Below are positions 4,854 through 23,497 of a stretch of DNA of 32,000 nucleotides, in pieces (positions within the stretch are counted from its first letter, which is position 1; every line of letters begins with the position of its first letter). The notes under the pieces are model-generated. The model did not search any database. It was given only the letters and a program-made list of their open reading frames with translations, and was not told where the DNA came from. The stretch is from NCBI RefSeq assembly GCF_002154695.1, contig NZ_MTAV01000014.1, positions 43,880 through 75,879 on the forward strand, written 5' to 3'. The position numbers and the translations under genes were made by a program. The stretch is from Nostoc sp. T09 (GTDB lineage: Bacteria; Cyanobacteriota; Cyanobacteriia; Cyanobacteriales; Nostocaceae).

Positions 4854-4863
4854 GTCAGTTAGA

Positions 4864-5103: not shown

Positions 5104-5235
5104 TAGAAATAAGAGTTTGAAAGAGATTTTGCGTAAGTACAAGATTACTCTGTTGCGTTTTTCTCTGCGACTCTGAGACTCTGCGTGAGATAAAAAAGAT
5201 GTTTTCCTGTCCCTTATTTTCTTCCTAATTACTAA

Positions 5236-6721: not shown

Positions 6722-6724
6722 TAT

Positions 6725-6769
6725 AACAACAACAATTTTATATTACACAATTTAGAAAAACAACAACAA
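6725..6769 (+). repeat. Two 11-bp direct repeats AACAACAACAA (6725-6735 and 6759-6769) just inside the left end of the element, upstream of the first recombinase gene
   Basis: Both are exact copies read directly from the sequence. Their position fits arm-type recombinase sites or promoter elements, but the function is untested. Confidence 0.3.
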
Positions 6770-6823
6770 ATAGCTTATTCTTCATGGTAAAGTTACTATA
6801 GTAAAACTTCCACGAAGTAGAAA

Positions 6824-7936
6824 GTGATAAGCCTAGAAAGAGCAATTAATCCTCAAACAGAGGAAAGATTTTGCTGCGTATTTGACACAGAAACTGGCTT
6901 GCCAATAGAACCAATCCAGCGATACTTAAACTACTGCCGTAAGCGTCAATTAGCAGCTAACACAGTTAACACTTATGCTTGTCGATTAGTAGATTTCTGG
7001 CAGTGGCTAGAATATAAATCTCTTAGCTGGCAAGATGTAGGACTCCAAGAACTGGCTGATTTTGTTAACTGGTATCTCCTTGGTGGCGAAGTAGAAGTTA
7101 TCTCCGAAGAAGTACGTGAAATAGTTTCCAAACGTAGCCCAAAAACAGTCAATCAAGCAGTTACAGCTATACAAGGACTCTATGAATTCCACATTGTAGA
7201 AGGTAGGATTGACGAAAAAGTTTTTGCTAAATTGGTTCATGGATGGGGCAAACGAGGTGGCTTCTTACGAGGCATAGTTAAAAGCACCCCAGAAAAACGC
7301 AAACGGATTAAAGTAAAAGAGCCAAAAATATTCCCTGGTTGTCTGACCGACGAACAAGTAGGTCAACTAGCAAATGCCTGTTACAGCTACAGAGACAGGC
7401 TGATAGTCATGCTACTGAGAGAAACGGGATTGCGGAGAGGAGAATTATTAGGCTTACATTTAGTAGACGTACAGGACTTTGATACTAGAGGAAGAATTAG
7501 AGTTGTAAGGCGGGACAATAATCCCAATGGCGCAATAGCTAAAGGCACAGAAAGAGAAATAGCAGTCCTTCATAACAGAGAGTCGGTTCAAGAAACTTTT
7601 CATGCTTATCTATTAGAAGAATATCCCTCAGAAGCAGAAAAACTCGGACATGGGATGCTGTTCGTTAATTTGGATGGCAAGTATATTGGAAAACCCATGA
7701 CCAGTGCAAGGTTAAATAGTCTGTTTTATCAACTAAAAGATCGAACAGGAATTGAAGCACATCCTCATTTATTCAGACATACTTTCGCTACTAGGATGCT
7801 CCAAGCGGGTTATGCAGATCACTACGTACAGCAACTATTAGGGCATAGTTCGATTGTGACTACTAAAGATATCTATTCTCATGTACTGAATGAAATGAGT
7901 CTAGATGCTTATTTATCAGCAGATGAGCAAAAATAA
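6824..7936 (+). CDS. Tyrosine recombinase/integrase, first of three in tandem
   Basis: The start is GTG. Catalytic signatures are GLRRGELLGL (Arg), HPHLFRHTFATRML (H-x-x-R-H) and LLGHSSIVTTKDIYSHV (His...Tyr). There is an N-terminal SAM-like core-binding region. Confidence 0.85.
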   Translation: MISLERAINPQTEERFCCVFDTETGLPIEPIQRYLNYCRKRQLAANTVNTYACRLVDFWQWLEYKSLSWQDVGLQELADFVNWYLLGGEVEVISEEVREIVSKRSPKTVNQAVTAIQGLYEFHIVEGRIDEKVFAKLVHGWGKRGGFLRGIVKSTPEKRKRIKVKEPKIFPGCLTDEQVGQLANACYSYRDRLIVMLLRETGLRRGELLGLHLVDVQDFDTRGRIRVVRRDNNPNGAIAKGTEREIAVLHNRESVQETFHAYLLEEYPSEAEKLGHGMLFVNLDGKYIGKPMTSARLNSLFYQLKDRTGIEAHPHLFRHTFATRMLQAGYADHYVQQLLGHSSIVTTKDIYSHVLNEMSLDAYLSADEQK

Positions 7937-7938
7937 TT

Positions 7939-9381
7939 ATGTTATCTCTAGAAGTCTTAAAAGAAAAGATAGCAAAATCAGAATTGGGACCAAAATGGCT
8001 ATATCTCCCTTTTTTTGAGAGAGATATTTGGTCTCTTGAAGAACTTAGTTACACAGAAGAAGAACGTAAATTTATTGGACACAGCAATCTTTATTTCAAG
8101 GGGTTTTCACTACTTTGGCTTAAGTTGTTGGCAAAATTAACCGTTTTAGCAACCTTTAGACAAAAACAATCATTGGATAATATTAGACATCGAATTACTT
8201 ACTTAAGACAATTGGATGAGTTTTTGATGGCTAAAGGCTATAGTCAGCCAGAAGATTTAACCGATACTCTATTGCGAGAGTATGTATCTCAAAGAATGAC
8301 AAAAGCTCGTCAACAATGTATAGCCTATGCAGTCAAATTATGGGCTGAAGAAGGATGGTTGAAATTAACTTATACTCATTTTAAAATTAAAAAAAAAGTT
8401 CCTAAACTAGAGACAATTCCAGAAGAAGTTCTTTATCAAATTTATGAGAATTTTGATCTTTTCCCACCGCAACTAGAAAGATTATTTAGACTCCAACTTG
8501 TTTTGGGATGTCGCATCGGAGAAATGCTCAGGATACCTCGCCAATGTTTGAAACAAGAAGACGATAAGTGGTTTATGCTGCGTTGGGTAGAGAAACGCAA
8601 ACAATGGCGGTTCTATCAAATTCATTATTTGTTAGCTGAATTGGTTCAAGAGCAACAGAAATTTTTAGATGGTAAATTTGGTGCTAATTCCAAATTTGAT
8701 AAATTGTTTTGTAAAGTTGATGTTTCATCTCATCGTTATAAAGGAAGATTTCACGTAGAGCCAGTTTATCAACCTGAAATTCTATCTTTTGCAACAACTG
8801 CACTTTGGTTAAGTGAATTTCGAGAAGAGGCTGACCTAAAAGATAAACACGGTAATAGATTTAAACTCACTAGCCATCATTTCCGCCGTACTAAAGCTAG
8901 TATCATGGCTTATTGTGAAGCAGAAGATGAATATATTGCTGCGGTTTTAGGTCATGCTTCTTTGGATATGCTGCCACATTATCGTAAGCGTTCTTTAGAG
9001 CGATTGGAGAAAGAGGCTAATTCTCAAGGATATGTCAATAAGTATGGTCAAGTTAGTAGCTTTAAACCTAGAAAACATAGATACGAGAAACTAGCTGAAA
9101 TTTTAAAAGTTAGCACTCCGCTAGGAGAATGCCACCGACCAAGTATATTAGGTGATTGCCAGTCCCGTTATGCCTGTCTAAGTTGCGATCACCATCGAGT
9201 TACTCTAGATGACAAGGCTAAGTTAGAGGCTGATTGCGAAAGCTTACAACAAGATTTAGAGCAAGCAAAAACTGTAGGGCAAGAAAGAAGAATTACTGAA
9301 ATTAATCGATTAATAGATTTGCTTAAAGTTCGATTAAAAGGCTTAGTAGAACTACAAAATTTGAAGATGGATGCAATATAA
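7939..9381 (+). CDS. Tyrosine recombinase, second of three, with a C-terminal Cys/His cluster
   Basis: Signatures are LGCRIGEML (Arg), TSHHFRRTKAS (H-x-x-R) and VLGHASLDMLPHYRK (His...Tyr). The C-terminus has CHRPSILGDCQSRYACLSCDHH followed by a coiled coil. It starts 2 nt after the upstream stop. Confidence 0.8.
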   Translation: MLSLEVLKEKIAKSELGPKWLYLPFFERDIWSLEELSYTEEERKFIGHSNLYFKGFSLLWLKLLAKLTVLATFRQKQSLDNIRHRITYLRQLDEFLMAKGYSQPEDLTDTLLREYVSQRMTKARQQCIAYAVKLWAEEGWLKLTYTHFKIKKKVPKLETIPEEVLYQIYENFDLFPPQLERLFRLQLVLGCRIGEMLRIPRQCLKQEDDKWFMLRWVEKRKQWRFYQIHYLLAELVQEQQKFLDGKFGANSKFDKLFCKVDVSSHRYKGRFHVEPVYQPEILSFATTALWLSEFREEADLKDKHGNRFKLTSHHFRRTKASIMAYCEAEDEYIAAVLGHASLDMLPHYRKRSLERLEKEANSQGYVNKYGQVSSFKPRKHRYEKLAEILKVSTPLGECHRPSILGDCQSRYACLSCDHHRVTLDDKAKLEADCESLQQDLEQAKTVGQERRITEINRLIDLLKVRLKGLVELQNLKMDAI

Positions 9382-11198
9382 TGACTCAACAGATATCTAA
9401 TACAATTTCTATTCATCCTACTTTATATGGACAATTAGAAGTAGATTGGAATAAAGAATATCAAGGTGAATTTATTTGCCCCAATTGTCAGAAAACCAAT
9501 CTGAAGAAAACTTCCTATAAAGAAAATTCAATATGTAAACTTAGATTTATTTGTAATACCTGCAATAAACGGATCTCTCTGACTTGTCTAGTTCCTGCCT
9601 TTATTTACAAATACCGCTCTGATATAGAATGTCCCAACCCACTTTGTACTCAATTAGGACATGATGGGCAAAAAGGATGGATATATACAATAAGAAATAT
9701 ATATGAACAGTGTAAATGTCGCTATTGCGGTGTTGGCTTTGAGCCTCAATCAACTGCCGCATCAAGCTGGGTTAATAGGACAACGGAAGGTCAATTATTA
9801 CCTTTTTGTTTTGAGGATGACATTTGGTATTTAAGACATTTCTACGATAATCCTTTTCCGCAATCAATTAGTTTTCAAAACATATCGCCGCAATGGTATC
9901 TATTAGAAGTTAAAAAATATATTCAATATTTACTCAAATCTAGAGTGTATTCTTCACCATCAGGAGTTAGACATACTCTAACAAATTTAAAGCAATTTGG
10001 AAAAATTCTAGACACTTATAAAATAAAACAAACTGCTGATATCAGTCGCGAAGCTGTACTCAGATTTTTAGATAATTACAAAAATTGCGATAACAAAACA
10101 ATCAATCATAAATTAAGCTACATAAAATCTTTTTTTGAATGGTTAGAACTTGATGCATCACACCTAATTCGTAGCCGTGATTACCTTAAAGAATCAAAAA
10201 ATGATGCTGACTGGTTGGATGAAGTAACGCGCACATCTATTAAAGAACATTTGTCGAAAATTCCTGCACCTATTGCTCGCCATTACCTGGTACAGGAGTA
10301 CACTGCTGCTCGTCCAGGAGATATTTGCCAATTAATTTTTGATTGCTTAGTAGAGGAAAATAGCAAATGGTATATCAAATTCTATCAACATAAAACTAAG
10401 CGTTGGCATCAAGTACCTGCTACCCGTGAAATTAGGCAATTAATTGAGGAACAACAACAATGGATAAGACAAGAAATTGGTCTAGAATATTCATATTTAT
10501 TTTGTCATTTCAGGAATATCAGGATCAAAAATTACCCTACTTTTACTACTATGAAGCCTTTGCCAATACCACCTCCGTTAACTATAAATGATAATAGGAT
10601 GGTAGCCATTATTCGTTTACTGATAGAAAAAGAAGACATCCGTGATGCTAATGGGCAGAGACCCCACTTCACAGGTAAAATCACTCGCCATAACAGGTTA
10701 CAAGAAGTACGAGTAAAACATGGTATTGAAGCTGCTCAACTTTATGCTGACCATGTTAGAAGTACTACTACTTTTCAAAACTATACACCTCCTACTAGAG
10801 AACAAGTAGCAGCAGTAGACTTGCCTTTTCAGGAACTGTTAATGAACCTGGATAACAAGTTCCTCCCTTGGCAATCTTTGCCAGAAAGCCTACTCAACAA
10901 CCCTAAAGCACACGAACTCGATCTCGAAATTGCACCACGCTTAGTGGTCTATGGACACTGTGCCCTCGACCCGAAAACGCCCTGTCCTGTTAATCTTTAC
11001 CCCAAATGCTATGGCTGTTCCAGTTTTCGCCCTAGCACTGGTAAATTACCTCTCTATGAACGTCAATATAACGGAGAACAACAAAGACTAACTGAAGCAG
11101 AACAAGCTGGTGCAGAATTAGCAAAAGAAGAAGCCAAAGCCACCATCGAGGCGATGGATAAATGGCTACCAGAACTAAGAAATTTAGCACATGGCTAA
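9381..11198 (+). CDS. Large tyrosine recombinase, third of three, with N-terminal zinc-ribbon-like Cys pairs
   Basis: The start overlaps the upstream stop (TAATG). N-terminal Cys pairs are CPNCQK...CNTCNK and CPNPLC...CRYCG. The catalytic-domain candidates are TAARPGDICQL (Arg), KITRHNR (K-x-x-R-H) and ADHVRSTTTFQNY (His...Tyr). There is a C-terminal Cys cluster CALDPKTPCPVNLYPKCYGC. Confidence 0.7.
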   Translation: MTQQISNTISIHPTLYGQLEVDWNKEYQGEFICPNCQKTNLKKTSYKENSICKLRFICNTCNKRISLTCLVPAFIYKYRSDIECPNPLCTQLGHDGQKGWIYTIRNIYEQCKCRYCGVGFEPQSTAASSWVNRTTEGQLLPFCFEDDIWYLRHFYDNPFPQSISFQNISPQWYLLEVKKYIQYLLKSRVYSSPSGVRHTLTNLKQFGKILDTYKIKQTADISREAVLRFLDNYKNCDNKTINHKLSYIKSFFEWLELDASHLIRSRDYLKESKNDADWLDEVTRTSIKEHLSKIPAPIARHYLVQEYTAARPGDICQLIFDCLVEENSKWYIKFYQHKTKRWHQVPATREIRQLIEEQQQWIRQEIGLEYSYLFCHFRNIRIKNYPTFTTMKPLPIPPPLTINDNRMVAIIRLLIEKEDIRDANGQRPHFTGKITRHNRLQEVRVKHGIEAAQLYADHVRSTTTFQNYTPPTREQVAAVDLPFQELLMNLDNKFLPWQSLPESLLNNPKAHELDLEIAPRLVVYGHCALDPKTPCPVNLYPKCYGCSSFRPSTGKLPLYERQYNGEQQRLTEAEQAGAELAKEEAKATIEAMDKWLPELRNLAHG

Positions 11199-12072
11199 AA
11201 AACATAATCGCGATAAACAAGCTGAAGTTCTGCGTCGTACTCAAGCTCAAAGAAAGGAACAAAAAAAAGAACAAGTATTAAAAGCTATTAAAGTAATACT
11301 TGATCAAAAACAGCCATTGACATTTGCAAAGATTGCTAATGTTTCTGGCTGTTCTATTTCTTATCTCTATAAATGGGATGAGATTAAGGCATATATCCAC
11401 GAACTTCAACAGGAAAAGGAGACTAAACTAAATCCCTTAGAAGAAAAAGACCCAAGACCCCATAGCCTTAAAACTCTACATGAAGTTGCTAGGCAAAGAA
11501 TTAGAGAACTGGAAGCGGAGATTAGGGAACTCAAACACCAGAATGAAAAACTCAGAGGTCATGTCGCAGAAATCTATGAACTTAAAGATGAGTGCGATCG
11601 CCTACGATCGCAGTTACGAGAGAAAGCTTCTGCTGATTCATCGACAAAGATAATTTCCTTAAGAATAAATAAACCTGAGACAAGTTCCTCTACACCTGAT
11701 ATACCTAAACCCAGTGAAGTTCATACTGCTGATATTCAACTAGAAGACTCGGATATCTTTCAATTAATTAACGAAATGGGGATTAAGATGAATTCAAAAC
11801 TAAAGCAAGAAATAGCAAGTCGTGAATATCATAAAGTTAAGTTATCAATTGAAGCTTTTCAAGAGTATCGTAGTAAAACTGATATAGAGAATCCTGCTGC
11901 TTGCTTACTAACCATGATACGTGATGAAGCAAAGCCTAATATCCCCGAAGGATCGACACTTAAACCATCAAGTAAATCTTCAGTTGCTATGCATAATAAT
12001 CAAAAAAAATTAATTTCTCACGATAAGCTCAAACAACTTAGCAAGTTATTTAACGAAAAGAATGAAGAGTAA
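11191..12072 (+). CDS. HTH plus coiled-coil accessory protein of the recombinase module, in the position of ginD/tnpC
   Basis: It overlaps the upstream gene by 8 nt and the downstream dcm by 11 nt. Features are a basic N-terminus, a probable HTH (LTFAKIANVSGCSISYLYKW) and a heptad-rich stretch (IRELEAEIRELKHQNEKLRGHVAEIYELKDECDRLRSQLRE). The function is inferred from position only. Confidence 0.45.
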   Translation: MAKKHNRDKQAEVLRRTQAQRKEQKKEQVLKAIKVILDQKQPLTFAKIANVSGCSISYLYKWDEIKAYIHELQQEKETKLNPLEEKDPRPHSLKTLHEVARQRIRELEAEIRELKHQNEKLRGHVAEIYELKDECDRLRSQLREKASADSSTKIISLRINKPETSSSTPDIPKPSEVHTADIQLEDSDIFQLINEMGIKMNSKLKQEIASREYHKVKLSIEAFQEYRSKTDIENPAACLLTMIRDEAKPNIPEGSTLKPSSKSSVAMHNNQKKLISHDKLKQLSKLFNEKNEE

Positions 12073-13339
12073 GCTAAAAAGACCAATAGCAATAGATCTA
12101 TTTGCTGGTGCGGGAGGGCTAAGTTTAGGATTTGAGCAAGCTGGATTTGATGTAAAAGCTGCTGTTGAAATCGATCCAGTTCATGCTGCTGTTCATAAGT
12201 TTAATTTTCCTTATTGCGTTGTATTACCTTGTTCGATCACTGAGTTATCAGGGAAAGATATTCGAGAAAGAAGTGGAATTGGCAACCAAAATATAGAAAT
12301 TATTATTTCTGGGTCTCCCTGCCAAGGTTACTCCTATATGGGTCGTCGAGTATTAGACGATCCAAGAAATTTTTTAGTAAAAGATTTTATAAGATTAGTC
12401 TTAGAGCTAAAGCCTTCTTATTTCGTTTTTGAAAACGTCAAAGGTTTTACAGTTAGTAAATATCAATCATTTTTAGATGAATTAATTGAAACTTTCAGTA
12501 ATAATAATTATCAAATCTGTTTACCCTGGAAAGTCCTTAATGCTGCTTATTATGGAATACCACAAAAGAGAGAAAGACTATTTCTAATTGGTGCAAAGAA
12601 AGGTTGTGTCTTGCCTGAGTATCCTGCTCCATGTAGCCAACCACTTTTTGCAAAGTTAGCCAATCCTATCTTACCTCCTACTCCATCTTGTTGGGATGCC
12701 CTCAAAGATTTACCAGAAGCAGAAGAATTTGAGGAATTACTATATAGTGATTGCGTAGAAACGGGACAATGGAGCAATCCCAGCCACTATGGGCGAGAAA
12801 TGAGATGTTTAGATGATAGTAGCTGGCATTTTGGCTATAGGAGAAATTGGAATCCCTTTCTTTTGACTTCTAGCATAAGAACTAATCATTCGCCAATCTC
12901 ACGAGCTAGATTTCATGCCACAGTACAGGGAAAGAAAGAACCTGTTTCTCACTTCTTCAAATTGGCACAAGATGGCATAGCTAATACCTTAAGGGCAGGA
13001 ACTGATGCTGCTCATGGCTCACACACATCTCCAAGACCTATTCATTACAGTAGTCCTCGCTGTATTACTGTACGAGAAATGGCACGATTACATGGGTTTC
13101 CTGATTGGTTTCGTTTTCACATCACAAAATGGCATGGTGCGAGACAGGTAGGAAATTCAGTTCCGCCACCATTGGCGAGAGCAATTGGTACAGAAATTAT
13201 GAAATGTTTGGGAATGAATCCAACTACTCCTGAAGATGTTTTGGATCTGGGAGATCCCAAACTTTTATCAATGACTATGAAACAAGCTGCAAATTATTGG
13301 CAGCTTACTATACCAACTAAAGATATTATCAATGTCTAA
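12062..13339 (+). CDS. dcm: DNA (cytosine-5)-methyltransferase, intact
   Basis: All key m5C-MTase motifs are present: I DLFAGAGGLSLGF, IV GSPCQGYS, VI ENVKG, VIII QKRERLFLIG, IX TVREMARLHGFPDWF and X GNSVPPPLA. Confidence 0.9.
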   Translation: MKSKLKRPIAIDLFAGAGGLSLGFEQAGFDVKAAVEIDPVHAAVHKFNFPYCVVLPCSITELSGKDIRERSGIGNQNIEIIISGSPCQGYSYMGRRVLDDPRNFLVKDFIRLVLELKPSYFVFENVKGFTVSKYQSFLDELIETFSNNNYQICLPWKVLNAAYYGIPQKRERLFLIGAKKGCVLPEYPAPCSQPLFAKLANPILPPTPSCWDALKDLPEAEEFEELLYSDCVETGQWSNPSHYGREMRCLDDSSWHFGYRRNWNPFLLTSSIRTNHSPISRARFHATVQGKKEPVSHFFKLAQDGIANTLRAGTDAAHGSHTSPRPIHYSSPRCITVREMARLHGFPDWFRFHITKWHGARQVGNSVPPPLARAIGTEIMKCLGMNPTTPEDVLDLGDPKLLSMTMKQAANYWQLTIPTKDIINV

Positions 13340-14645
13340 GAGTAACCAGTTTTTAGGAAACTTAGAAGCAGAAGAAGCCATACTAGGGGGTATCTTACTT
13401 GACCCTAATGCTATTAGCATAGTTGCTAATATTCTTCCTGTAGAGGCTTTTGGTACTCATGGTAATCAACAAATTTATAAGGCAGCTTTAGAGTTATATC
13501 AAAATAATAAGCAAACAGATTTAATGACTATTTCTACTTGGTTGTCAGACCATAAAGTATTAGAAAAAATAGGAGGTAATAATAAACTATCTCAACTTCT
13601 TACCCGTACTGTATCAGCAGTAAATATAGACCATTATGCTGCCCTAGTACTGGATAAATACCAACGCCGTCAATTAGTAGCAGTAGGACATACCATAGTT
13701 GATTTAGGTTGCGATACTAGCATTGAATTAGAACAAGTATTTGAGCAATCTGAACAAAAACTATTTAATCTCACAACTAACAAGAAAGCTAGATTTCAAC
13801 CCAAACCTATTCATGAGTGTTTAGCTAATGTCCTGAATAAGATAGAGCAAGGTTCATCTCCTGCTTATCCTACGGGTTTAGTAGACTTAGATGCTCTCAT
13901 TGGTGGCTTAATTAAACAAGACTTGATTGTGGTTGCTGCTAGACCATCTATGGGTAAAAGCTGGTTCGGCTGTTATCTGACTAATTATATTGCAAGCAGT
14001 ATTCAGAAGCCAGTATTGTTCTTTAGTGCAGAGATGTCTGAGGAACAACTGACTAAAAGATTCCTCTCTATGCACACAGGTATTGATTCCCAAAGACTCA
14101 TGCACAATCAAATTTATGAGGAGGAATATGATTCTTTAGTACAAGGTTTATCTAATCTAGGTAAACTGCCCATTATCATTGATGATACTCCAGCAAGTGA
14201 ATTAACTCCCACTAAAATTCGTTCTGCACTTCGTAGAATAGAATCTGAAAGAGGAGAGTTAGGATTAGTAGTATTAGACTACATTCAAAAGCTTGGAGAT
14301 AGAGCAGCAGGTAATAGAGCGCAAGCAATTGGTAAATATTGTGGTGCTTGTAAGGATATTGCTAAAACCTTCAATGTCCCATTTGTAGTTCTGGCTCAAA
14401 TTAATCGTGGTGTAGAAGGTCAAAGTAATAAACGTCCTTCTATGGCTGATATAAAGGACTCTGGCGATATTGAACAGGACATGGACTTAGGACTACTACT
14501 TTATCGAGATGAATATTACAACTCGAATACTAGCGATCAAGGAATTATGGAGATAATAGTCGCTAAAAATAGAAATGGTATAACAGATACTTGTAAGGTG
14601 GTGTTTGACCCTAGTATTGGTAACTTCTCTGATTACAAAAATTAG
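13332..14645 (+). CDS. DnaB-family replicative DNA helicase, element-borne paralogue
   Basis: It has a DnaB N-terminal domain (EAEEAILGGILLDP), Walker A ARPSMGKSWF, Walker B LVVLDYIQ and LAQINRGVE...DIKDSGDIEQDMD. It overlaps the dcm stop by 8 nt. No intein is present. Confidence 0.85.
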   Translation: MSKSNQFLGNLEAEEAILGGILLDPNAISIVANILPVEAFGTHGNQQIYKAALELYQNNKQTDLMTISTWLSDHKVLEKIGGNNKLSQLLTRTVSAVNIDHYAALVLDKYQRRQLVAVGHTIVDLGCDTSIELEQVFEQSEQKLFNLTTNKKARFQPKPIHECLANVLNKIEQGSSPAYPTGLVDLDALIGGLIKQDLIVVAARPSMGKSWFGCYLTNYIASSIQKPVLFFSAEMSEEQLTKRFLSMHTGIDSQRLMHNQIYEEEYDSLVQGLSNLGKLPIIIDDTPASELTPTKIRSALRRIESERGELGLVVLDYIQKLGDRAAGNRAQAIGKYCGACKDIAKTFNVPFVVLAQINRGVEGQSNKRPSMADIKDSGDIEQDMDLGLLLYRDEYYNSNTSDQGIMEIIVAKNRNGITDTCKVVFDPSIGNFSDYKN

Positions 14646-14784: not shown

Positions 14785-17700
14785 TTAGCTAGCATCTTGT
14801 GTCAACCTATGATATACCTTCTCTAGTATCCAGTCCTTCACTGCTCCGCCAAATTCTTTGTCATCTATAATTTTCGCAAATATATCTTGGTTTAAATCCA
14901 TGCGCTCAATCAGTTTTGTGAGAAAAATATCCTCAAATCCATATTTGAAGTTCTGAATTGAGTTGCTTTTAGCTTGTTGTGATAGTACTTCATCTTGAAC
15001 TAATGCTTCCTCAATTTGGCTAAAAAAGTATTTATCTGCTTCCGTAAAATCGGTACGAAATCTTTGGTTGAGGATGTCTATAATTTCTGAGAGTTTAGCT
15101 TGTGTCTCTTTTTCTCTAGGTATGCCAGCTTCAGTTATTGGTTGCAGATGTGATTCTGCATTTTTTTCTAAGACAATTCTACCTTCTCTGATTTTTTGTA
15201 ATCGATAATATTCCAGTGCAACTTCATCAGTGAGTTTAAAAACTTCGCTTTGGCTGCGTTTTGGTAATTTAGTTTGCAGTAGACGAGCAAAAGCATAGAA
15301 TTTTTCTAGTTCTTCATCTGCAAAGGGCATAATCTGGGACAAGAAAGCATATAGCCTGATGAATGTAGTTAAACTATTTTTAAATTCATCTTGTTGTTCT
15401 TCGCCTAATGCCTTAAAACGGTCAACAGCAGGATCAACTAGGGAATGAAGCCTACTGTGATCTTGCTTGTTTGTCTTTTCCTGAGATTTAAAAAATACCT
15501 GCGTGAAAGCATCTACATCGCTATTCCAAATGATTTGGTAGCTATCTAGCCTATTTTTTAAGTCATATAGTCGGTTAGGATCTGTGGTTGATGCTAGTGT
15601 AGTTTGTTCATAATAAAGCTGGAAAGCATCAATAATTTCTTGCTCTGAATTAGCAAAATCTAAAACAAAGGTATCTTCTTTGCCTGAAAAAGTGCGATTC
15701 AAGCGAGATAAAGTTTGTACGGCTTTGACTCCAGACAGTTTTTTATCCACGTACATGGTGTGTAACAATGGCTGGTCAAAACCAGTTTGATACTTGTCTG
15801 CGACAATCAAGAGTTGATATTCACCAGACTCAAACTTTTCCGGTAATTCCCGTTCACCAAAACCGTTGAGATCATATTCAGTGTATTTAATAGCTGTTTC
15901 TCGATCAGTGAAACTGGTAAAAGCTACCAATGCTTTGATATCAACATAACCTTGCTTTCTTAAATAGTTATCAAATTCTTCTTTATAGCGCACTACGTGA
16001 GGACGAGAAGCAGTAACTACCATTGCCTTTGCTTTTCCACCAATTTTGTGCATGACGCATTGGCGAAAATGTTCGATGATCACTTCAGTTTTTTGAGCTA
16101 AGTTATGTGGATGCAGAGATAAAAACCTGGCTATAGCCCGACTTGCTTTCTTCGCATTAATTTTAGGGTCATCTGCGATCGCTTTAGAAATTTGGAAATA
16201 AGTTTTATAGGTTGTGTAATTCTGCAACACATCCATAATGAACCCTTCTTCAATTGCTTGGCGCATGGAATACAAATGAAAGGGTTCTGGAAGACCTTGG
16301 GCATTAATTTGACCAAATTCTTCCAAGGTTTTTTGCTTTGGTGTGGCAGTGAAAGCAAAGAAGCTCAAGTTCGGTTGTTTACCACGAATATGCATCTCTT
16401 TGCGGATATTGTCTTCAATATCTTCTTCTTCTGTCATGCTTTCCTCTTTAGCTGAACGGCTGAGGTCATTGACAGAAAGGACTTCTTTCATTTTCTTGGA
16501 TGCTTCGCCACTTTGAGAACTATGGGCTTCATCCACTATTAAAGCGTAATTGCGTTTTGGTAGTTGGGCAATGTTGTTTTTTTCTAAGATTTCCCGAATC
16601 TTATCCAAGACGAAAGGAAATTTTTGCAAGGTAGTAATAACAATATTAGTTCCAGAAACCAAAGCTTCGGCTAGTTGGGTAGAGTTTTTATCAATTTTTT
16701 GCACAACACCTTGCTTATGCTCAAATTGATAAATTGTGTCTTGTAGCTGCTGATCTAGTACCCTCCTATCAGTGATAACGATGACTAAATCAAAAACTCG
16801 CTCATTTTGGTTGTTGTATAAACTAGCAAGTTGATATGCTAACCAGGCAATGGAGTTACTTTTGCCACTACCAGCAGAATGCTGAATTAGGTAATCATGT
16901 CCTGGTCCCTTAACTTTTGCATCTGCGGTCAACTTGCGAACCACATCTAATTGGTGAAATCGAGGGAATATAAGGGTTTCTTTTTTGGCGGATTTACCAT
17001 TGAGTTTAATGTTTTGCTGCTCAAGGTGCAAAAAACGACCCACGATGTCTAGCCAACTGTCTTTCGCCCATATATCTTCCCAGAGATAGGCGGTTTTGTA
17101 GCCGTTGGGGTTGGGAGGGTTGCCTGCACCTTTGTTGAAGCCTTTGTTGAATGGTAGAAAGCGGGTATTACTACCTTCAATGCGGGTAGTCATCCAGACT
17201 TCATCCGGGTCTACAGCAAAATGTACCAAAGTACGACGCTTAAATTGAAATAATAAATCTCGGTTATCCCGGTCTTGGATATACTGGCGCTTGGCTTTAT
17301 CTACATCTTGTCTGGTAAATTGGTTTTTTAGTTCTACTGTGGCGACTGGCAAACCATTGATACTTAACAGTAGATCTATTGAGTTTCCATGTTGATCACT
17401 GTAGTGTACCTGACGAGTTACTGTGAGGATATTTTGGTTATAAAGTACTAGAGTATCGGGGTTTAGTCCACTTGCGGGTTTGAAGAATGCTAATTTGAAG
17501 CGTACACTGTAGTCAATGATACCATATCGCAGTACATCTAACATCCCACGATTATTCAATTCTTGATACAGCCTTTGCATGAACTTAGGTTCAACCTCAG
17601 CACCATGAATGTCTGTCAGATGTTGCCATGCTTCCATCTGAGAAGTTTGAATAAACCTCAGTAGAGTGGCTTGATCGAGTGCTAGTTCTTGAATAAAATT

Positions 17701-17796
17701 GCTAGCATACCCTTCTTCATAGCCACCATTACTTAATAAGCTGGCAATGATTGCATTTTCAAAAGCTTTTTCGGTTGTCTGAACAGTTGCAGTCAT
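14785..17796 (-). CDS. hsdR: Type I restriction enzyme R subunit (HsdR)
   Basis: The protein is 1003 aa. SF2 helicase motifs are QHSAGSGKSNS (I), IVDEAHSSQ (II, DEAH), FTATP (III) and QTLSRLNR (VI). There is an N-terminal nuclease-type region. The start overlaps the upstream stop (ATGA). Confidence 0.9.
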   Translation of the reverse strand: MTATVQTTEKAFENAIIASLLSNGGYEEGYASNFIQELALDQATLLRFIQTSQMEAWQHLTDIHGAEVEPKFMQRLYQELNNRGMLDVLRYGIIDYSVRFKLAFFKPASGLNPDTLVLYNQNILTVTRQVHYSDQHGNSIDLLLSINGLPVATVELKNQFTRQDVDKAKRQYIQDRDNRDLLFQFKRRTLVHFAVDPDEVWMTTRIEGSNTRFLPFNKGFNKGAGNPPNPNGYKTAYLWEDIWAKDSWLDIVGRFLHLEQQNIKLNGKSAKKETLIFPRFHQLDVVRKLTADAKVKGPGHDYLIQHSAGSGKSNSIAWLAYQLASLYNNQNERVFDLVIVITDRRVLDQQLQDTIYQFEHKQGVVQKIDKNSTQLAEALVSGTNIVITTLQKFPFVLDKIREILEKNNIAQLPKRNYALIVDEAHSSQSGEASKKMKEVLSVNDLSRSAKEESMTEEEDIEDNIRKEMHIRGKQPNLSFFAFTATPKQKTLEEFGQINAQGLPEPFHLYSMRQAIEEGFIMDVLQNYTTYKTYFQISKAIADDPKINAKKASRAIARFLSLHPHNLAQKTEVIIEHFRQCVMHKIGGKAKAMVVTASRPHVVRYKEEFDNYLRKQGYVDIKALVAFTSFTDRETAIKYTEYDLNGFGERELPEKFESGEYQLLIVADKYQTGFDQPLLHTMYVDKKLSGVKAVQTLSRLNRTFSGKEDTFVLDFANSEQEIIDAFQLYYEQTTLASTTDPNRLYDLKNRLDSYQIIWNSDVDAFTQVFFKSQEKTNKQDHSRLHSLVDPAVDRFKALGEEQQDEFKNSLTTFIRLYAFLSQIMPFADEELEKFYAFARLLQTKLPKRSQSEVFKLTDEVALEYYRLQKIREGRIVLEKNAESHLQPITEAGIPREKETQAKLSEIIDILNQRFRTDFTEADKYFFSQIEEALVQDEVLSQQAKSNSIQNFKYGFEDIFLTKLIERMDLNQDIFAKIIDDKEFGGAVKDWILEKVYHRLTQDAS

Positions 17797-18785
17797 AGTT
17801 GTGCCTCGGTCTGTTCAATTATTTTTACAGTATTTAAGAATTGCTCATAGGCAACCTGACGGAGGATTTCTTGTAATTTGCCCCTTTGAAATTCATTTAA
17901 ATCTAACTTGAGATTATCCTCTTCGTTGTAGCAAAGGTTGACAAAAGTGATTTCATCGGTATGTAAAAATTTTGCTACATCTGGTTTTTTATCAGGCAGA
18001 TTGTTAATTAATTCGCAGGTATCTGGGTCAAAATACAGATGCACTAAATTTTGAATGCCAACAACAGGGCGACCTTGATAGTGGGGCTTGCCATCACTAG
18101 ATTGCCACAGAACACCAAAGACTTTGCAATTTCCAGAACGGTAGACTTTCCCGATTTGTGGTGCACCTCTAATACTAGATGAGGGTCGTGAAGTATCCCG
18201 AATTTTTCTGATGAGTAGTTTTAAGGGTTGCATATCTAGCTTGATATCTGTCATCCCCACAACTTCATAAAGTTCTAAAATCAAATCGTCACTTTCAATA
18301 TCTCCAATAAAGCAGACTGGCTCAGAATCATCTAGATAGCAACGTTCGGCTGTAAATACTTCTACTTTTAGATCATAGAACAGTCGCCAAACATAAAACT
18401 CACTGGTTTGCCAGCGCCAACCCCCGAATATAAATTGAGCTTCACTTCTCGCTTCATCGTAGTTTGGGCGGTTAATTTCACTGAGATCAATGGCTTGAGC
18501 AAGATCAGTAAAGAGAGCTTTTGTGTGGTTGAGGATGTCTAATAAATCTGTCTGCGGATTTTTCAGAGCAGGAGAAGTATTGATTGTCTGAATTAGGTTG
18601 AGAATCATGGGGTATGCACGATTGGTTTCTCCTGCAAAACAGATGAAACAGTCTCTGCGGGGCAATTCAAAAAGTTTTACTCCCGCTTCCCATCGTTCAC
18701 CCGCAGAAAGACAACTATCGGTTGCAAATACTAATTCTTGATCGCCTGTCGGTGTATGACGTACCCAGGCTGCACATAAAGTCAT
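17793..18785 (-). CDS. Uncharacterised 330-aa protein embedded in the type I R-M operon. The N-terminal ~185 aa resemble the HslV/proteasome-beta Ntn-hydrolase fold, and the C-terminal ~145 aa are unassigned.
   Basis: ATGA overlaps link it to both hsdS (18782-18785) and hsdR (17793-17796). The pattern MT-LCAAWV...LVFATDSCLSAGE...GVKLFEL...FICFAGETNRAY...VCFIGDIESDD parallels E. coli HslV MTTIVSV...VVIAGDGQAT...VKKVRRL...IAGFAGGTADAF...IAIGSGGPYA, recalled from memory. The gene call is solid and the fold call is inference. Confidence 0.55.
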   Translation of the reverse strand: MTLCAAWVRHTPTGDQELVFATDSCLSAGERWEAGVKLFELPRRDCFICFAGETNRAYPMILNLIQTINTSPALKNPQTDLLDILNHTKALFTDLAQAIDLSEINRPNYDEARSEAQFIFGGWRWQTSEFYVWRLFYDLKVEVFTAERCYLDDSEPVCFIGDIESDDLILELYEVVGMTDIKLDMQPLKLLIRKIRDTSRPSSSIRGAPQIGKVYRSGNCKVFGVLWQSSDGKPHYQGRPVVGIQNLVHLYFDPDTCELINNLPDKKPDVAKFLHTDEITFVNLCYNEEDNLKLDLNEFQRGKLQEILRQVAYEQFLNTVKIIEQTEAQL

Positions 18786-20104
18786 GCAGTAACCTCCTCC
18801 CTAACATCAATTTTGCCTGTTACTGCTGCTGTGATAAGGGTCTGGCGATATTCTTGCAGTTTTTCTATAGTTTCCTTGTTTTTAGTAATAATTTTGTCAA
18901 TCATTACTGTTGACTTTTGAATAAATGAAACAATATCCTCTTGTTCTTTATAAGGTGGTTCAACAATTGGTAAGGTTTGCAAGATAGGAACGCTTAAATT
19001 AACTTGTGCTGATCCCCAACCTTCAACTGTAAAGAATGACTGAGCAAATGAGGAGTTAATATAATAACTATAAAAGAGGGGAAATTGCTGAGGATTAAGT
19101 GTAGCTATTAGTAAAGTAAAACATTGAGCATGATTTAGTTCTTCAGGAACTACAGCAGTCATGCCAGCGTTTGCACCTGTGCGAACAGTCAAAATATCTC
19201 CTTTACGAAGATACTTAGAGCGATTTTTTTCTGCAAACCACTCCTCAATATAAAGAATATCGCTGAAATCAATATAATTTTTTTTTACATTACCAGAGCG
19301 AACGATAGGAACTCCTTGGAGTGTATAAGCGTGAGTTGCTGCTTCTGCAATTCCGACTTCAATACGTGATGTAACACGTTTAAAAATTTTTACTCGCCAA
19401 TGTTCAGGAACTTCACCAATCCCAGAAATACCAGAATCTTTCATCGGAACATTTGGGTTTAGCCCTTTGGTTACAGCTTGGTTAATCAGAGCATTGCGTT
19501 TTTCTTCGAGTAGTTCGATGAGACGTTGTTTTTTGTCAATAAGGGTAGCGATCGCAACAGTTTTGCGATCAAGGAAAGAGGCGATTGCACTTTGCTGCTC
19601 AAGAGGAAGCACAGGAATAGAAATTGAACCAATCTCAGAGGCATTAGTTGCTGGGTAACTCACTCCAATAGAACGAGCACATATTTCATCAACTACAAAA
19701 CTAGAACGCATCCAGTAATATAGGTAACGAGGATTTAGTATATTGCCTATTGGAGAAAGAACAGCAAATCCTGTTGAGGCAATTAGGCTGGGATTATTCT
19801 CTTCAACATAGCTAATGGCTTTCAGGTATGTTCTAACAGTAGAAACAATCGTGTCTCCTTGAATCACTTTTCGTCTTGCTCTTGATGGTGAATTCTCGAA
19901 AACGAATTCACTCATTTGTAAGATTTTTCCAGTAGAATCAACGCTTCCAATATCTATGTATTTTATGGGAAAATCGGACGGAGTTGATTCCGGTAGAGTT
20001 TTTGCATTAATTTGAGTTACATACTTCAATGGCATTAAGGTAACTGATTTTTCTAAGTCTCCAAGCCATAGAAGATTTCGGTCACAGCTAACTAAGGCTT
20101 TCAT
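18782..20104 (-). CDS. hsdS: Type I R-M specificity subunit (HsdS)
   Basis: The protein is 440 aa with two variable target-recognition halves. These are separated and followed by the conserved helical spacers LIELLEEKRNALINQAVTKGL and IEKLQEYRQTLITAAVTGKIDV. Confidence 0.85.
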   Translation of the reverse strand: MKALVSCDRNLLWLGDLEKSVTLMPLKYVTQINAKTLPESTPSDFPIKYIDIGSVDSTGKILQMSEFVFENSPSRARRKVIQGDTIVSTVRTYLKAISYVEENNPSLIASTGFAVLSPIGNILNPRYLYYWMRSSFVVDEICARSIGVSYPATNASEIGSISIPVLPLEQQSAIASFLDRKTVAIATLIDKKQRLIELLEEKRNALINQAVTKGLNPNVPMKDSGISGIGEVPEHWRVKIFKRVTSRIEVGIAEAATHAYTLQGVPIVRSGNVKKNYIDFSDILYIEEWFAEKNRSKYLRKGDILTVRTGANAGMTAVVPEELNHAQCFTLLIATLNPQQFPLFYSYYINSSFAQSFFTVEGWGSAQVNLSVPILQTLPIVEPPYKEQEDIVSFIQKSTVMIDKIITKNKETIEKLQEYRQTLITAAVTGKIDVREEVTA

Positions 20105-20106: not shown

Positions 20107-22188
20107 TTAATTTATAACCTCCTTCAGCATTCCCTGAATTTCATCTTCTAAATCTTTAATTTCCTGTTCAATTTTCTCCAACGGTCTAGGTGGTACATAT
20201 TCATAAAAATGCCGTGTAAACGGTATTTCATAACCAATCTTCGTCTTACTCCCATCTACCCATGCATCTGGCACATGGGGTAAAACTTCGCGCTTCATAT
20301 ACTCATCAATATCTTCTTTCAATGGCACATTTTCGTAATCTCTAAGGTCTGAGTCTGGTTCTGGGTTGCCATCTTTATCAATACAGATATCAGCTGTTTC
20401 ATCTCGTTCAGCTAAAGCATTTATAATTGCTTTCTTCACCGGAGCTGCTACTTTCACATCAGCCACTTTCAATGCAGCCGTCAAATCTGTTTCAAACTCA
20501 TCCCGCTTTTTGTATAGAATATCTCCTAAATTACGCAATGCTTCTTTAATAGTCTCCTGTAACTGCTTCCCTTCTTCAATTTCTCGTAAAGCAACCCCAC
20601 CGCGTTTTTTAGACTCAGCTAAATTTATAAAGGCAGTTTCAGTTTCTAGCTTGGCAATACGTTCATCACTCACCTGAAAATTTAACCTTAGCGGACGTTC
20701 TACTGTGATGCGCCAATAACCAAAGTCTTCATTATCAAAAATTTTGCTAACAATAATATCTTGTTCTTTACCATCTACCTCAAGTTTGCGTTTAACATAC
20801 TGATGAAACTCGCCCTCGCCGTAAATGCAGGTAATTTCTGCTATTTGATTGGGCTTGCCATCTTCACCATCCCCAATTTCATTACGCTTATTTCCCAAAC
20901 TACGGGTCATTTTTTTGTAATAATGGATGCCATTAACAAGCTGTATTTTACCTTTACGTTTTGGAACTTTACAATTGGTTACAATCCAAATATATGTATA
21001 AATTCCAGTGTTATAAAACAATTGGTCTGGCATAGCAACAATCGCTTCTAGCATATCGTTTTCGATAAGCCATTTGCGAATTTCACTTTCGCCACTACCA
21101 GCACTGCCTGAAAATAGCGGTGAGCCGTTGAATACAATGGCAATTCGAGAACCACCATTATCAAGCTTCATCTTAGAAATCATGTGTTGTAGGAACAAGA
21201 AAGAACCATCAGAAATCCTCGGTAATCCGGCTCCAAAACGTCCATCAAATCCTTTCTTCTCATACTCATTTTTGACATATGTTTGCACCTTCTTCCATTC
21301 CACACCAAAGGGCGGATTAGACAACATATAATCAAATGTTTCGTGTGCCAAACCATCATTAGTAAAAGTATTTCCAAACTTAATATTGCTGATATCTTGA
21401 CCTTTAATCAACATATCAGATTTACAAATTGCGTAAGATTCTGGGTTGAGTTCTTGACCAAAAACCACAGGCTTAGAATATTCGTTAAGTTCTTTAATGT
21501 ACTCTTCTGCTACAGACAGCATCCCACCAGTTCCACAAGCAGGATCGTAGATAGTTTTGACAATACCTTTTTGGATTAGAATATCTTTATCATTGATAAA
21601 CAGAAGGTTAACCATTAGTCGGATAACTTCACGCGGTGTAAAGTGTTCCCCCGCAGTTTCATTAGATAATTCTGAAAATTTGCGAATTAACTCCTCAAAA
21701 ACATATCCCATCTCCGTGCTGTTTGCTTCTTTTGGATGAAGATCAACTTCAGCAAAATTTTTAACAATTAAAAATAGCAGATTAGCTTCATCTAAACGAT
21801 TAATTTGGTCATTGAAGTTAAAATATTCGATGATTTCTCTGCCTGCGGCAGAGAAGCCATTAATAAAGTTTTTGAGATTAGCGGCTAAATTATCTGGATC
21901 TGCTTTGAGTTTTTGAAAGGTAAACTGGCTAATATTGTGAAAAGGTACGCCAGCTTTTTGGTTTAGTAAAGGCTCAGGATTCTTCAGATTCTTCATAGAC
22001 TTTACTTTCGTTTCGTAAAAGTCCATCACAGATACTTTTGTTGGCTCTAAAATGCAGTCTAATCGACGCAACACTGTGAATGGCAGTATGACTTTGCCAT
22101 AGTCAGCTTGCTTATAATCACCGCGTAAAAGTTCAGCAATACTCCAAATAAAACCAACAAGCTTTCTTACTTTTTCCGTTCGCGCCAT
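20107..22188 (-). CDS. hsdM: Type I R-M N6-adenine DNA methyltransferase subunit (HsdM), long form
   Basis: It has the SAM-binding motif DPACGTGGML, the catalytic motif LSNPPFG and an HsdM N-terminal domain. An acidic, helical C-terminal extension of about 200 aa follows. The stop lies 2 nt before the hsdS start. Confidence 0.9.
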   Translation of the reverse strand: MARTEKVRKLVGFIWSIAELLRGDYKQADYGKVILPFTVLRRLDCILEPTKVSVMDFYETKVKSMKNLKNPEPLLNQKAGVPFHNISQFTFQKLKADPDNLAANLKNFINGFSAAGREIIEYFNFNDQINRLDEANLLFLIVKNFAEVDLHPKEANSTEMGYVFEELIRKFSELSNETAGEHFTPREVIRLMVNLLFINDKDILIQKGIVKTIYDPACGTGGMLSVAEEYIKELNEYSKPVVFGQELNPESYAICKSDMLIKGQDISNIKFGNTFTNDGLAHETFDYMLSNPPFGVEWKKVQTYVKNEYEKKGFDGRFGAGLPRISDGSFLFLQHMISKMKLDNGGSRIAIVFNGSPLFSGSAGSGESEIRKWLIENDMLEAIVAMPDQLFYNTGIYTYIWIVTNCKVPKRKGKIQLVNGIHYYKKMTRSLGNKRNEIGDGEDGKPNQIAEITCIYGEGEFHQYVKRKLEVDGKEQDIIVSKIFDNEDFGYWRITVERPLRLNFQVSDERIAKLETETAFINLAESKKRGGVALREIEEGKQLQETIKEALRNLGDILYKKRDEFETDLTAALKVADVKVAAPVKKAIINALAERDETADICIDKDGNPEPDSDLRDYENVPLKEDIDEYMKREVLPHVPDAWVDGSKTKIGYEIPFTRHFYEYVPPRPLEKIEQEIKDLEDEIQGMLKEVIN

Positions 22189-22351: not shown

Positions 22352-22957
22352 TTAAGTCCAATCTCTTCTAATACGAGTTACCGCCTGGTTTAACCCTTCA
22401 CTATGAATCCAACCGACAAACCCGCCGTAAATCATTCTGTCATTGACATCGCCTAAAAAAACATGGTCAACACCAACGGGGTTTTTCCAAGTTCTTACCA
22501 CTGTCCCATCTCTCAGCTTCATGATGGGAATTGACCACTGAAAATCTCTGTGGTTTGCAGGAGTCATGCCAGGGACATTCTCTAAAATAGCCATTACCTC
22601 TTGAGTGACATTTTTGGTGTAAGTTTTTACCGTAGCTTTGAGCCGTTCTTTAAGGTTTCTGTCAAACAATAGTAAAAAATCAATTTCTTTAAAAAGCTTG
22701 GTATGTGATTGAGTCTGCCGTCTGTGGCTATAAATACCTGTTAAGAAACCTTCCAGAATTACTTTTGCCAAAGCATGGCTAATCAAACCTATTAGTCCTA
22801 AGGCAGCAATTCCACCCACCATCCCTGCTGGACCTCCCAGGAATGCTAAAGCTGTGGTGATAGCAGCGGCATCTTTTAAACCTGTAGTCGCCATTAATAC
22901 CGCCAAGATAATACAAGGTAATCCGATAGCAGCAAGTTTTTTGACGACTTCATCCAT
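22352..22957 (-). CDS. Small membrane protein with a glycine-zipper-like N-terminal double TM segment and a soluble C-terminal domain
   Basis: The N-terminus reads IGLPCIILAVLMATTGL...ALAFLGGPAGMVGGIAALGLIGLI. I recognised no family. Confidence 0.55.
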   Translation of the reverse strand: MDEVVKKLAAIGLPCIILAVLMATTGLKDAAAITTALAFLGGPAGMVGGIAALGLIGLISHALAKVILEGFLTGIYSHRRQTQSHTKLFKEIDFLLLFDRNLKERLKATVKTYTKNVTQEVMAILENVPGMTPANHRDFQWSIPIMKLRDGTVVRTWKNPVGVDHVFLGDVNDRMIYGGFVGWIHSEGLNQAVTRIRRDWT

Positions 22958-23203: not shown

Positions 23204-23497
23204 ATGAGCAATAAGGACGATAAAAAAACCAGAATGTATATTTATGTTGCAGATGTTGTAGCGGTTGCTTGGAACAAAGAGAGAGGAATGCTTTTAAAGC
23301 GATTGCGGGGAAAAAAATCACGTCAAAAACTAGCTGATGAAATTGCAGCCAGGGGAGGAGAATGCTCCCATCAAAATCTCAAGAAACTAGAGTACGGTGA
23401 GTCCGAAAGTGTCTCAACCAAAGTATTAGAGGCTGTTTGTGCTGCATTAGATATTTCTTTAAGTGACTTTCTCAGTACTGTCGAAGTGACTAATTAA
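23204..23497 (+). CDS. XRE-family helix-turn-helix transcriptional regulator
   Basis: LLKRLRGKKSRQKLADEIAARGGECSHQNLKKLEYGE...VLEAVCAALDISLSDFL is a typical HTH_3 pattern. The true start may be the internal Met at 23288. Confidence 0.8.
   Translation: MSNKDDKKTRMYIYVADVVAVAWNKERGMLLKRLRGKKSRQKLADEIAARGGECSHQNLKKLEYGESESVSTKVLEAVCAALDISLSDFLSTVEVTN

Follow-up and report, generated by a model that had tools for sequence, protein, structure and literature searches.

A predicted proteasome-fold protein encoded between hsdS and hsdR in type I restriction-modification operons of at least nine phyla

Introduction

What might a protein that resembles a proteasome subunit be doing in the middle of an operon for DNA restriction? 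The question is raised by a 32,000-nucleotide stretch of the Nostoc sp. T09 genome (contig NZ_MTAV01000014.1, positions 43,880 to 75,879 of the forward strand; hereafter the window), in which a 330-residue protein, here termed the proteasome-like protein (PLP), is encoded on the minus strand within a type I restriction-modification (R-M) operon. An earlier note on this DNA, made from the letters and their translations, had singled out the open reading frame (ORF) at 17793-18785 as a candidate N-terminal nucleophile (Ntn) hydrolase related to the proteasome and HslV. Reading of the minus strand confirms its length of 330 amino acids and its MTLCAAWV start, and the motifs that had been quoted are all found in the product: LVFATDSCLS at residues 18-27, GVKLFEL at 35-41, FICFAGETNRAY at 47-58 and VCFIGDIESDD at 157-167. 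The ATG is the first start codon past the upstream in-frame stop; a mis-called start or a hidden propeptide was considered and rejected, both for this reason and because the Met-Thr start is conserved across the family.

Sequence searches and the homologous family

PLP escapes the sequence profiles against which it was compared. No match was recovered in Pfam at E<=1, in NCBIfam, in PADLOC-DB v2 at E<=10 (which holds no model for the family) or in PHROGs better than E=0.15, and searches of the PDB sequences, using phmmer with PLP and hmmsearch with the family profile, gave chance matches only. The proteasome profile PF00227 matched none of 40 close relatives at E<=10, and a Pfam scan of 22 distant relatives returned noise, save for one sub-threshold match to PF00227 (Proteasome) at E=0.19.

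PLP nevertheless belongs to a sizeable family, with 357 homologues at E<=1e-3 in a 90%-clustered database and 702 representative clusters in an exhaustive profile search, and its pattern of conservation is well beyond chance. The closest relatives, at 90% identity, come from Nostoc, and the carriers include the culturable Shewanella frigidimarina, Flavobacterium rivuli DSM 21788, Dysgonomonas mossii DSM 22836 and Algoriphagus winogradskyi DSM 15360. All homologues to whose gene the source gives a name are called 'hypothetical', with the single exception of a 495-residue protein from Nostoc sp. (P0027). An in-frame deletion has fused HsdM residues 1 to ~266 to PLP residues ~103-330 in this protein, which explains its annotation by NCBI as an HsdM subunit; the deletion takes out hsdS together with the catalytic N-terminus of PLP.

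Predicted fold and domain organization

Two AlphaFold2 (AF2) models of PLP were built, model 1 from an alignment of 40 sequences (predicted local distance difference test score, pLDDT, 79.8) and model 2 from 79 sequences that included distant relatives (pLDDT 92.7; predicted template-modelling score, pTM, 0.87). Searched against the PDB with Foldseek at E<=1e-3, they gave 917 and 1075 matches respectively. The top matches are solely alpha and beta subunits of the 20S proteasome, Anbu, the T. acidophilum beta subunit and M. tuberculosis PrcB, the best reaching E ~1e-7, a probability of 1.00 and a TM-score on the target of up to 0.72; every one of the top 50 matches of model 2 is a proteasome alpha or beta chain or an Anbu chain. 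No competing fold was found in the PDB with either model.

The order of secondary structure elements is identical in both models. The N-terminal part has strands at residues 3-10, 16-22, 38-40 and 46-52 followed by helices at 54-70 and 81-97, the middle has strands at 116-124, 129-138, 143-148 and 156-161 followed by helices at 165-176 and 186-196, and the core ends with strands at 210-214, 220-227 and 233-236. The succession S1-S4, H1-H2, S5-S8, H3-H4 and S9-S10 is that of proteasome subunits (PMC8665760), and PLP shares this strand-helix order, and the alpha-beta-beta-alpha sandwich formed by it, with HslV, the 20S beta subunits and Anbu (MEROPS family T1). On the strength of the models, PLP is a proteasome-fold protein with an S1-S10/H1-H4 alpha-beta-beta-alpha sandwich, and the Ntn/proteasome fold claimed in the earlier note is upheld by the two models and their matches to proteasome-family chains. 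Unlike the members of T1, PLP lacks a significant sequence-profile match and has a C-terminal addition of ~95 residues. Its polypeptide can be divided as follows:

18606-18785, minus strand: residues 1-60, the most conserved segment, with the putative active site (Thr2, Asp23-Ser24, Lys37 and Cys49/Gly52), strands S1-S4 and the start of H1
18078-18605, minus strand: residues 61-236, the remaining proteasome-fold core (H1, H2, S5-S8, H3, H4 and S9-S11); Foldseek alignments span 222-260 columns
17994-18077, minus strand: residues 237-264, a small family-specific segment with a predicted helix at 243-247, a strand at 251-253 and a DPD motif, found also in the shorter relatives outside R-M operons
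17796-17993, minus strand: residues 265-330, an alpha-helical C-terminal extension with a helix at 276-285 and a long helix at 298-329 in the AF2 models

Mean pairwise column identity is 0.75-0.79 in residues 1-60, as against 0.31-0.61 in the other 30-residue blocks. Within the DPD motif, P254 is invariant, and most members have D253 and D255. The extension formed by residues 265-330 is restricted to the form embedded in R-M operons (the long form) and is missing from phage and plasmid relatives of 265-300 residues (the short forms), which cover profile positions 1 to ~260. The unrecognized C-terminal domain of ~145 residues (186-330) delimited in the earlier note was therefore drawn too large, given that the core reaches ~236 and the extension starts at 265: residues 186 to ~236 belong to the core, as H4 and the strands at 210-236, and the part that is specific to the R-M-embedded form is confined to ~265-330. 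This helical part is a candidate docking element.

The putative active site

The first residues of PLP are those expected of a threonine hydrolase that is active without processing of a propeptide. The Met-Thr start is kept in 87 of 88 long-form PLPs, which bears out the earlier assignment of an N-terminal threonine to the nucleophile position, and all 88 share D23, S24, K37 and G52. In a set of 40 diverse members M1, T2, L3, C4, D23, S24 and G52 are among the invariant residues, with K37 present in at least 90%. Among the aligned short forms 21 of 22 start with MT and one with MS. Interchange of threonine and serine is typical of Ntn nucleophiles, and the MS start is such a swap. E. coli HslV starts with MTT, and the chains in solved HslV crystals begin at the threonine (PDB); removal of the methionine of PLP by methionine aminopeptidase can hence reasonably be expected, and would expose Thr1 without a propeptide, as in HslV.

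The family alignment was compared by hhalign with E. coli HslV and the T. acidophilum beta subunit, whose sequences were checked against the PDB. The ATDS motif of PLP falls on AGDG in HslV and ATER in T. acidophilum beta, with D23 equivalent to D17 or E17; GVKLF falls on VKKV and GKKLF, with K37 equivalent to K33; and CFAG falls on GFAG and TIAG. Scores of these alignments are non-significant (P 0.009-0.17) and one run has a one-residue ambiguity of register, so that the mapping of residues is a lead and not proof. The spacing relative to HslV that the earlier note had described is reproduced in its correspondences (D23 to D17, K37 to K33 and FAG to FAG), at a score short of significance (P ~0.01-0.02). 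Strands S2, S3 and S4 of PLP end in conserved Asp, Lys and Gly residues, which may be the counterparts of those in the T1 peptidases; unlike in these, Asp, Asn or Glu stands at the position that would correspond to Ser129, and the position of Gly47 may be occupied by Cys or Ser.

The long form has, in addition, near-invariant cysteines at C4 (88/88), C46 (83/88) and C49 (83/88), where the short forms mostly have Ala or Ser. A redox or metal-related role of these residues is conceivable.

Linkage to type I restriction-modification operons

The position of the PLP gene inside a type I R-M operon, reported in the earlier note, holds on closer analysis, with Pfam matches identifying a complete type I R-M set in the flanking genes, in the order hsdM-hsdS-PLP-hsdR. 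In the direction of transcription the features are:

20107-22188, minus strand: hsdM, operon gene 1, methyltransferase subunit of 693 aa (Pfam N6_Mtase, 1.7e-56; HsdM_N, 1.2e-23)
18782-20104, minus strand: hsdS, specificity subunit of 440 aa (Pfam Methylase_S in two stretches, 6.4e-19)
18793-18801, minus strand: the Shine-Dalgarno-like GGGAGGAGG, 7 nt 5' of the PLP ATG and within the 3' end of hsdS, as seen in the sequence itself
18782-18785, minus strand: ATGA overlap of the hsdS stop (TGA) with the PLP start (ATG), read from the sequence
17793-18785, minus strand: PLP gene, 330 aa, third of the four operon genes, with the MTLCAAWV start
17793-17796, minus strand: ATGA shared by the PLP stop and the hsdR start, preceded by GAGG at a distance of 8 nt, read from the sequence
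14785-17796, minus strand: hsdR, the last operon gene, restriction and translocase subunit of 1003 aa (Pfam HSDR_N, SWI2_SNF2, ResIII and T1R_D3-like)

It is probable that GGGAGGAGG acts as the Shine-Dalgarno sequence of the PLP gene, and the overlap of its stop with the start of hsdR would couple the translation of the two genes. A scan of the operon with promoter and terminator consensus sequences performed no better than on shuffled sequence. The nearest solved relative of the HsdR encoded here is EcoR124I HsdR, the relationship being limited to residues 641-733. Unlike HslV and the proteasome, PLP has no AAA+ partner, and its gene lies in an R-M operon instead of a heat-shock or proteostasis locus.

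The same arrangement recurs widely. A survey seeded from PLP, with one genome per species, comprised 80 loci from at least nine phyla: 42 from Bacteroidota, 13 from Cyanobacteria, 10 from Desulfobacterota ('Deltaproteobacteria'), five from Gammaproteobacteria, four from Acidobacteriota, one each from Deinococcota, Nitrospirota, Chloroflexota and Marinimicrobia, and two unclassified. The Hsd genes were called by jackhmmer seeded with the proteins of the window, and hsdR was scored only where 3.2 kb or more was available for it. An hsdR gene lies downstream of PLP on the same strand at 71 of 71 loci, and upstream there is an hsdS at 76 of 78 and an hsdM at 63 of 66. The gap between hsdS and PLP is below 50 bp in 62 loci (exactly -4 in 28); that between PLP and hsdR is below 50 bp in 57, and 30 of the 71 loci have the same -4 overlap as the window. 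In six further look-ups, from Shewanella frigidimarina, Sphingobacterium, an uncultured cyanobacterium, Methylobacter and two metagenome contigs, PLP is directly 3' of hsdS, and a full hsdR follows in five, while the sixth (L007) keeps a 154-residue HsdR remnant. Homologues thus neighbour hsd genes just as the earlier note's reading of the locus would predict, and the long form is exclusively embedded in type I R-M operons, in tight translational coupling.

Loci in which the genes are not adjacent carry inserts, namely GmrSD (12 loci), a ~110-residue ORF (10), RhuM (six), PIN (four), an AlbA_2-ATPase of the Schlafen type (four) and SIR2_2 (three). The ~110-residue ORF has no family match and lies between hsdS and PLP (L019:7670-7999, L002:9659-9997 and eight other Bacteroidota loci); its product could be a partner or an inhibitor of PLP. 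The slot can also be otherwise occupied or vacant. Related R-M systems whose HsdR is 49% identical can lack PLP: in plasmid pYP1 of Ketogulonicigenium vulgare (L106, 5039-6983) an AAA ATPase and a 'retron system putative HNH endonuclease' occupy the space between hsdS and hsdR with overlapping gene ends, and in a relative on a B. thuringiensis plasmid the slot is empty. The contents of the pYP1 slot indicate that the hsdS-hsdR junction is a general docking site for accessory defence modules.

Such embedding has a precedent. The gene for the anticodon nuclease PrrC has the hsdS-hsdR position in the type IC locus of EcoprrI; the R-M enzyme keeps the nuclease latent, and inhibition of EcoprrI by the T4 peptide Stp activates it (PMC12707154). 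PLP resembles PrrC and the rlo genes of Campylobacter type I loci in being embedded between hsd genes (PMC12707154, PMC11411939); it differs from PrrC, a nuclease with an ATPase domain, in being a predicted proteasome-fold hydrolase.

Exchange of PLP alleles

Across 65 complete operons the distances of HsdR and HsdM are closely correlated (r=0.95), as against r=0.60 for PLP and HsdR. In 48 pairs of operons HsdR is at least 80% identical and PLP less than 50% identical; two Flavobacterium operons, for instance, share 98% identity in HsdR, 97% in HsdM and 80% in HsdS, with 47% in PLP, and the operon in the window and one from Chroococcus share 91% in HsdR and 41% in PLP. Where HsdR is at least 95% identical, the identity of PLP ranges from 43 to 99% (median 87%) and is below 50% in one third of pairs, while HsdM never falls below 92%; operons with HsdR and HsdM 95-98% identical can carry PLPs that are 43-47% identical. 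At least eight clades of PLP are mixed within single clusters of HsdR. Between alleles the N-terminal 60 residues are 60-86% identical, compared with 13-46% in residues 90-210, where the alleles diverge most.

Judged by these identities, the divergence looks like cassette replacement and not gradual drift; it would be comparable to the switching of specificity by HsdS, and the diversity of alleles could be a signature of the kind left by an arms race. The possibility that PLP is a strictly integral, co-evolving R-M subunit was considered and rejected, in view of the swapping of alleles under near-identical HsdR and HsdM and of the related R-M systems without PLP.

Short relatives outside restriction-modification systems

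In the viral, plasmid and chromosomal loci examined, relatives without the C-terminal extension are carried by genomic islands, plasmids and prophages and never have hsd genes beside them. In IMG/VR contigs, short forms of ~280 residues occur as single genes inserted in phage structural modules (L093:8001-8867, L098 and L091:8001-8840): on one contig between the genes for the terminase large subunit plus a small gpW-like ORF and a lambda-type portal, and on another between a DUF6441 head-tail gene and that for the tail tube. A tblastn search of GenBank phages with a viral short form gave no match. On plasmids, the short form follows two dynamin-like/LeoA GTPase genes in Klebsiella (NZ_CP054968.1, L099), lies beside integrases in Agrobacterium (L100/L104), with a conserved gene for ~380-450 residues upstream, and neighbours an integrase in Rhodococcus (L101) and an IS21 element in Lactiplantibacillus. 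On the E. coli chromosome (L105) it adjoins a tyrosine recombinase and is present in 128 of 5426 complete genomes; RefSeq annotates just a 191-residue coding sequence for it. Such cargo positions on mobile elements, those in prophages being moron positions, fit genes for defence or counter-defence.

Fuchs, Alva and Lupas (2021) described 22 divergent families of proteasome homologues, such as PMI-4, DAH, GPH and FC1-5, with genomic context informative for none of the 22 (PMC8665760). PLP is like these in being distant, unannotated, borne by prokaryotes and phages and without a propeptide, and several of them likewise have C-terminal additions of unknown structure (PMC8665760). The taxa of the short forms (Klebsiella and E. 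coli, Rhodococcus, Lactiplantibacillus and phages) are similar to those in which GPH, DAH and the FC families occur (PMC8665760). The R-M-embedded form is commonest in Bacteroidota and Cyanobacteria, a pattern shared among the new families of Fuchs and colleagues only by PMI-4, CPH and AAH; the comparison with the 22 families was made by description and taxa, and PLP may equal one of them.

Proposed function and alternative explanations

Together, the fold with its conserved Thr, Asp, Lys and Gly, the embedding in R-M operons, the C-terminal extension and the exchange of alleles lead us to infer an active threonine hydrolase tied to R-M. We tentatively propose, at somewhat less than an even chance, that PLP is a threonine protease that is coupled to the R-M complex in a latent state, and that it provides a second line of defence in the manner of PrrC or of Lit, the protease of prophage e14. 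This is favoured because PLP occupies the slot of PrrC, because second-line defence genes are co-inserted at the same junctions and because the diversity of its alleles is like that of an arms race. Co-translated with HsdS and HsdR, PLP would be an accessory component of this class of type I systems. Removal of its methionine would make the threonine residue 1 of an Ntn hydrolase that needs no propeptide, and the C-terminal helices (~265-330) would be the likely tether to the Hsd complex, within which the protease would be kept latent. Phage factors that inhibit or perturb the R-M complex might then unleash PLP, which would cleave a host or phage protein and so halt the infection; the exchangeable alleles, with their variable residues 90-210, could set the trigger or the substrate that is recognized.

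Several observations weigh against this proposal. The profile PF00227 does not tie the family to the proteasome in the Pfam scans, so that homology rests on the fold and the motifs. The equivalent of the oxyanion Gly47 is ambiguous, being Cys/Ser49 in the HslV register or Gly52 in that of T. acidophilum, and position 162, which follows the conserved Gly161 and would correspond to the canonical Ser129, holds Asp, Asn or Glu. The C-terminal extension ranks with the most weakly conserved regions of PLP (column identity 0.31-0.35), which is odd for a surface that docks on the well-conserved HsdR or HsdM. The decayed locus L007 retains an intact PLP beside fragmented hsdS and hsdR, which argues weakly against a toxin that needs Hsd for its silencing. 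A survey seeded from PLP shows that the long form implies R-M, and not that R-M needs PLP. Finally, proteolytic activity, physical coupling to Hsd, latency, trigger and substrate are all inferred.

A bolder version of the proposal, which we regard as doubtful, makes PLP a dedicated fourth component of a widespread class of type I R-M enzymes that is docked by its C-terminal helices and switched on by phage anti-restriction proteins or stalled complexes; it would then act by proteolytic abortive infection or by destruction of the inhibitor, and the short relatives would be single-gene protease defences.

The main rival to the PrrC/Lit-like proposal is that PLP is a built-in protease for restriction alleviation, which degrades or restrains HsdR when the host chromosome is unmodified, as in a new host or after DNA damage, and so performs in cis the role of ClpXP. 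Degradation of HsdR by ClpXP is established for type IA and IB systems, with type IC using another mechanism (PMC12707154), and PLP would likewise make proteolysis a layer of control on type I restriction, at HsdR. Its gene is directly upstream of hsdR and translationally coupled to it, the association with R-M is obligate (71/71), and the operons are clearly mobile, lying among island genes, integrases and other defence cargo, so that a self-contained safety device would aid establishment in a new host. Unlike ClpXP, which is a serine protease with housekeeping duties, comes with an unfoldase and is encoded elsewhere, PLP is encoded within the operon, has no unfoldase partner there and does not co-vary with HsdR, although a regulator of HsdR should co-evolve with it (the pairs with HsdR 95-98% and PLP 43-47% identical being a case in point). 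R-M systems with HsdR 49% identical manage without PLP, and the standalone relatives of phages and plasmids have no HsdR to regulate. The lack of co-variation and the existence of these relatives weaken the alleviation model, which we judge unlikely. Less likely again is a gene that is an independent defence passenger, with the hsdS-hsdR junction serving as a co-expressed insertion slot and no functional link to R-M. The filling of inter-hsd slots by GmrSD, RhuM, PIN, SIR2_2, Schlafen-like and ATPase-HNH modules marks a hotspot that would suit such a passenger, the embedded TgvAB system does not depend on HsdR activity for its function (PMC11411939), the alleles of PLP are exchanged like cassettes and its short relatives work, or at any rate survive, by themselves on mobile elements. 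On the other hand, the truly independent GmrSD, RhuM and PIN are common elsewhere, whereas the long form lies outside a type I R-M operon in none of the 71-78 informative loci of the PLP-seeded survey and is set apart from its free-living relatives exactly by the added C-terminal extension.

PLP might instead be directed against anti-restriction itself, destroying phage or plasmid inhibitors such as DNA mimics or Stp-like peptides, or stripping them from the complex. Obligate linkage and diversity of alleles agree with this, and phage inhibitors that evolve fast could be matched by changes in the variable region, which lies outside the catalytic core; the standalone prophage and plasmid relatives are left unexplained by it, however, and no such activity is described in the literature searched, and we consider it of lower probability than the passenger model. 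Least probable of all is a role other than proteolysis, with PLP acting as a ligase or transpeptidase resembling connectase, a small-molecule amidase or a structural or assembly subunit in which the threonine serves another purpose. The proteasome-like family does include the monomeric protein ligase connectase and many odd uncharacterised members (PMC8665760), the equivalents of Ser129 and Gly47 are non-canonical, and the long form has its extra near-invariant cysteines C4, C46 and C49 near the site. Against it, the full set of Thr, Asp and Lys and the free N-terminus are strictly conserved, and the structural matches include catalytic beta subunits and Anbu besides alpha subunits.

Other genes in the window

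Directly upstream of hsdM is a 201-residue ORF (22352-22957, minus strand) with hydrophobic stretches and a weak PADLOC match to the candidate PDC-M09A (E 1.8e-5), and beyond it lies a divergent gene (23204-23497, plus strand) for a 97-residue protein with a Cro/C1-type helix-turn-helix. These may be a further defence candidate and its regulator. On the other side of the operon, a 110-residue 5' fragment of a C5 DNA methylase gene (6458-6790) is followed by three consecutive tyrosine recombinase genes (6824-7936, 7939-9381 and 9381-11198) and a gene for a DUF6262 protein, after which comes an intact dcm (12062-13339) whose N-terminus is closely like the fragment. The region 6458-13339 looks like a recombinase-in-trio element that inserted at, or duplicated, the start of dcm. 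A DnaB-like replicative helicase is encoded at 13332-14645, in an overlap with the end of dcm and in convergent orientation to hsdR; this gene may belong to a mobile island that separates the lpx/bamA cluster (11-6405) from the R-M operon.

Conclusions

Accessory genes embedded in R-M operons and divergent homologues of the proteasome are both already known. The pairing of PLP with R-M, its obligate nature and the exchange of alleles appear to be new: in the literature searched, in full text, neither R-M nor anti-phage defence is connected in any paper with a protease of the proteasome-like, Ntn or threonine type, no protease encoded within a type I operon has been described before and no proteasome-fold enzyme has been placed in a prokaryotic defence system. 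The earlier note, which knew of no described defence system that pairs such a peptidase with HsdMSR, accords with this literature.

The linkage to hsdS and hsdR, held at every informative locus of the PLP-seeded survey, gives a divergent family of proteasome homologues a testable context. Its occurrence in the same slot across at least nine phyla suggests that a protein-cutting enzyme works with the type I restriction system. If active, PLP would add a protein-level layer to DNA-level immunity, and if PLP is indeed a fourth component of these systems, this would be the first immune role of the proteasome fold in prokaryotes.

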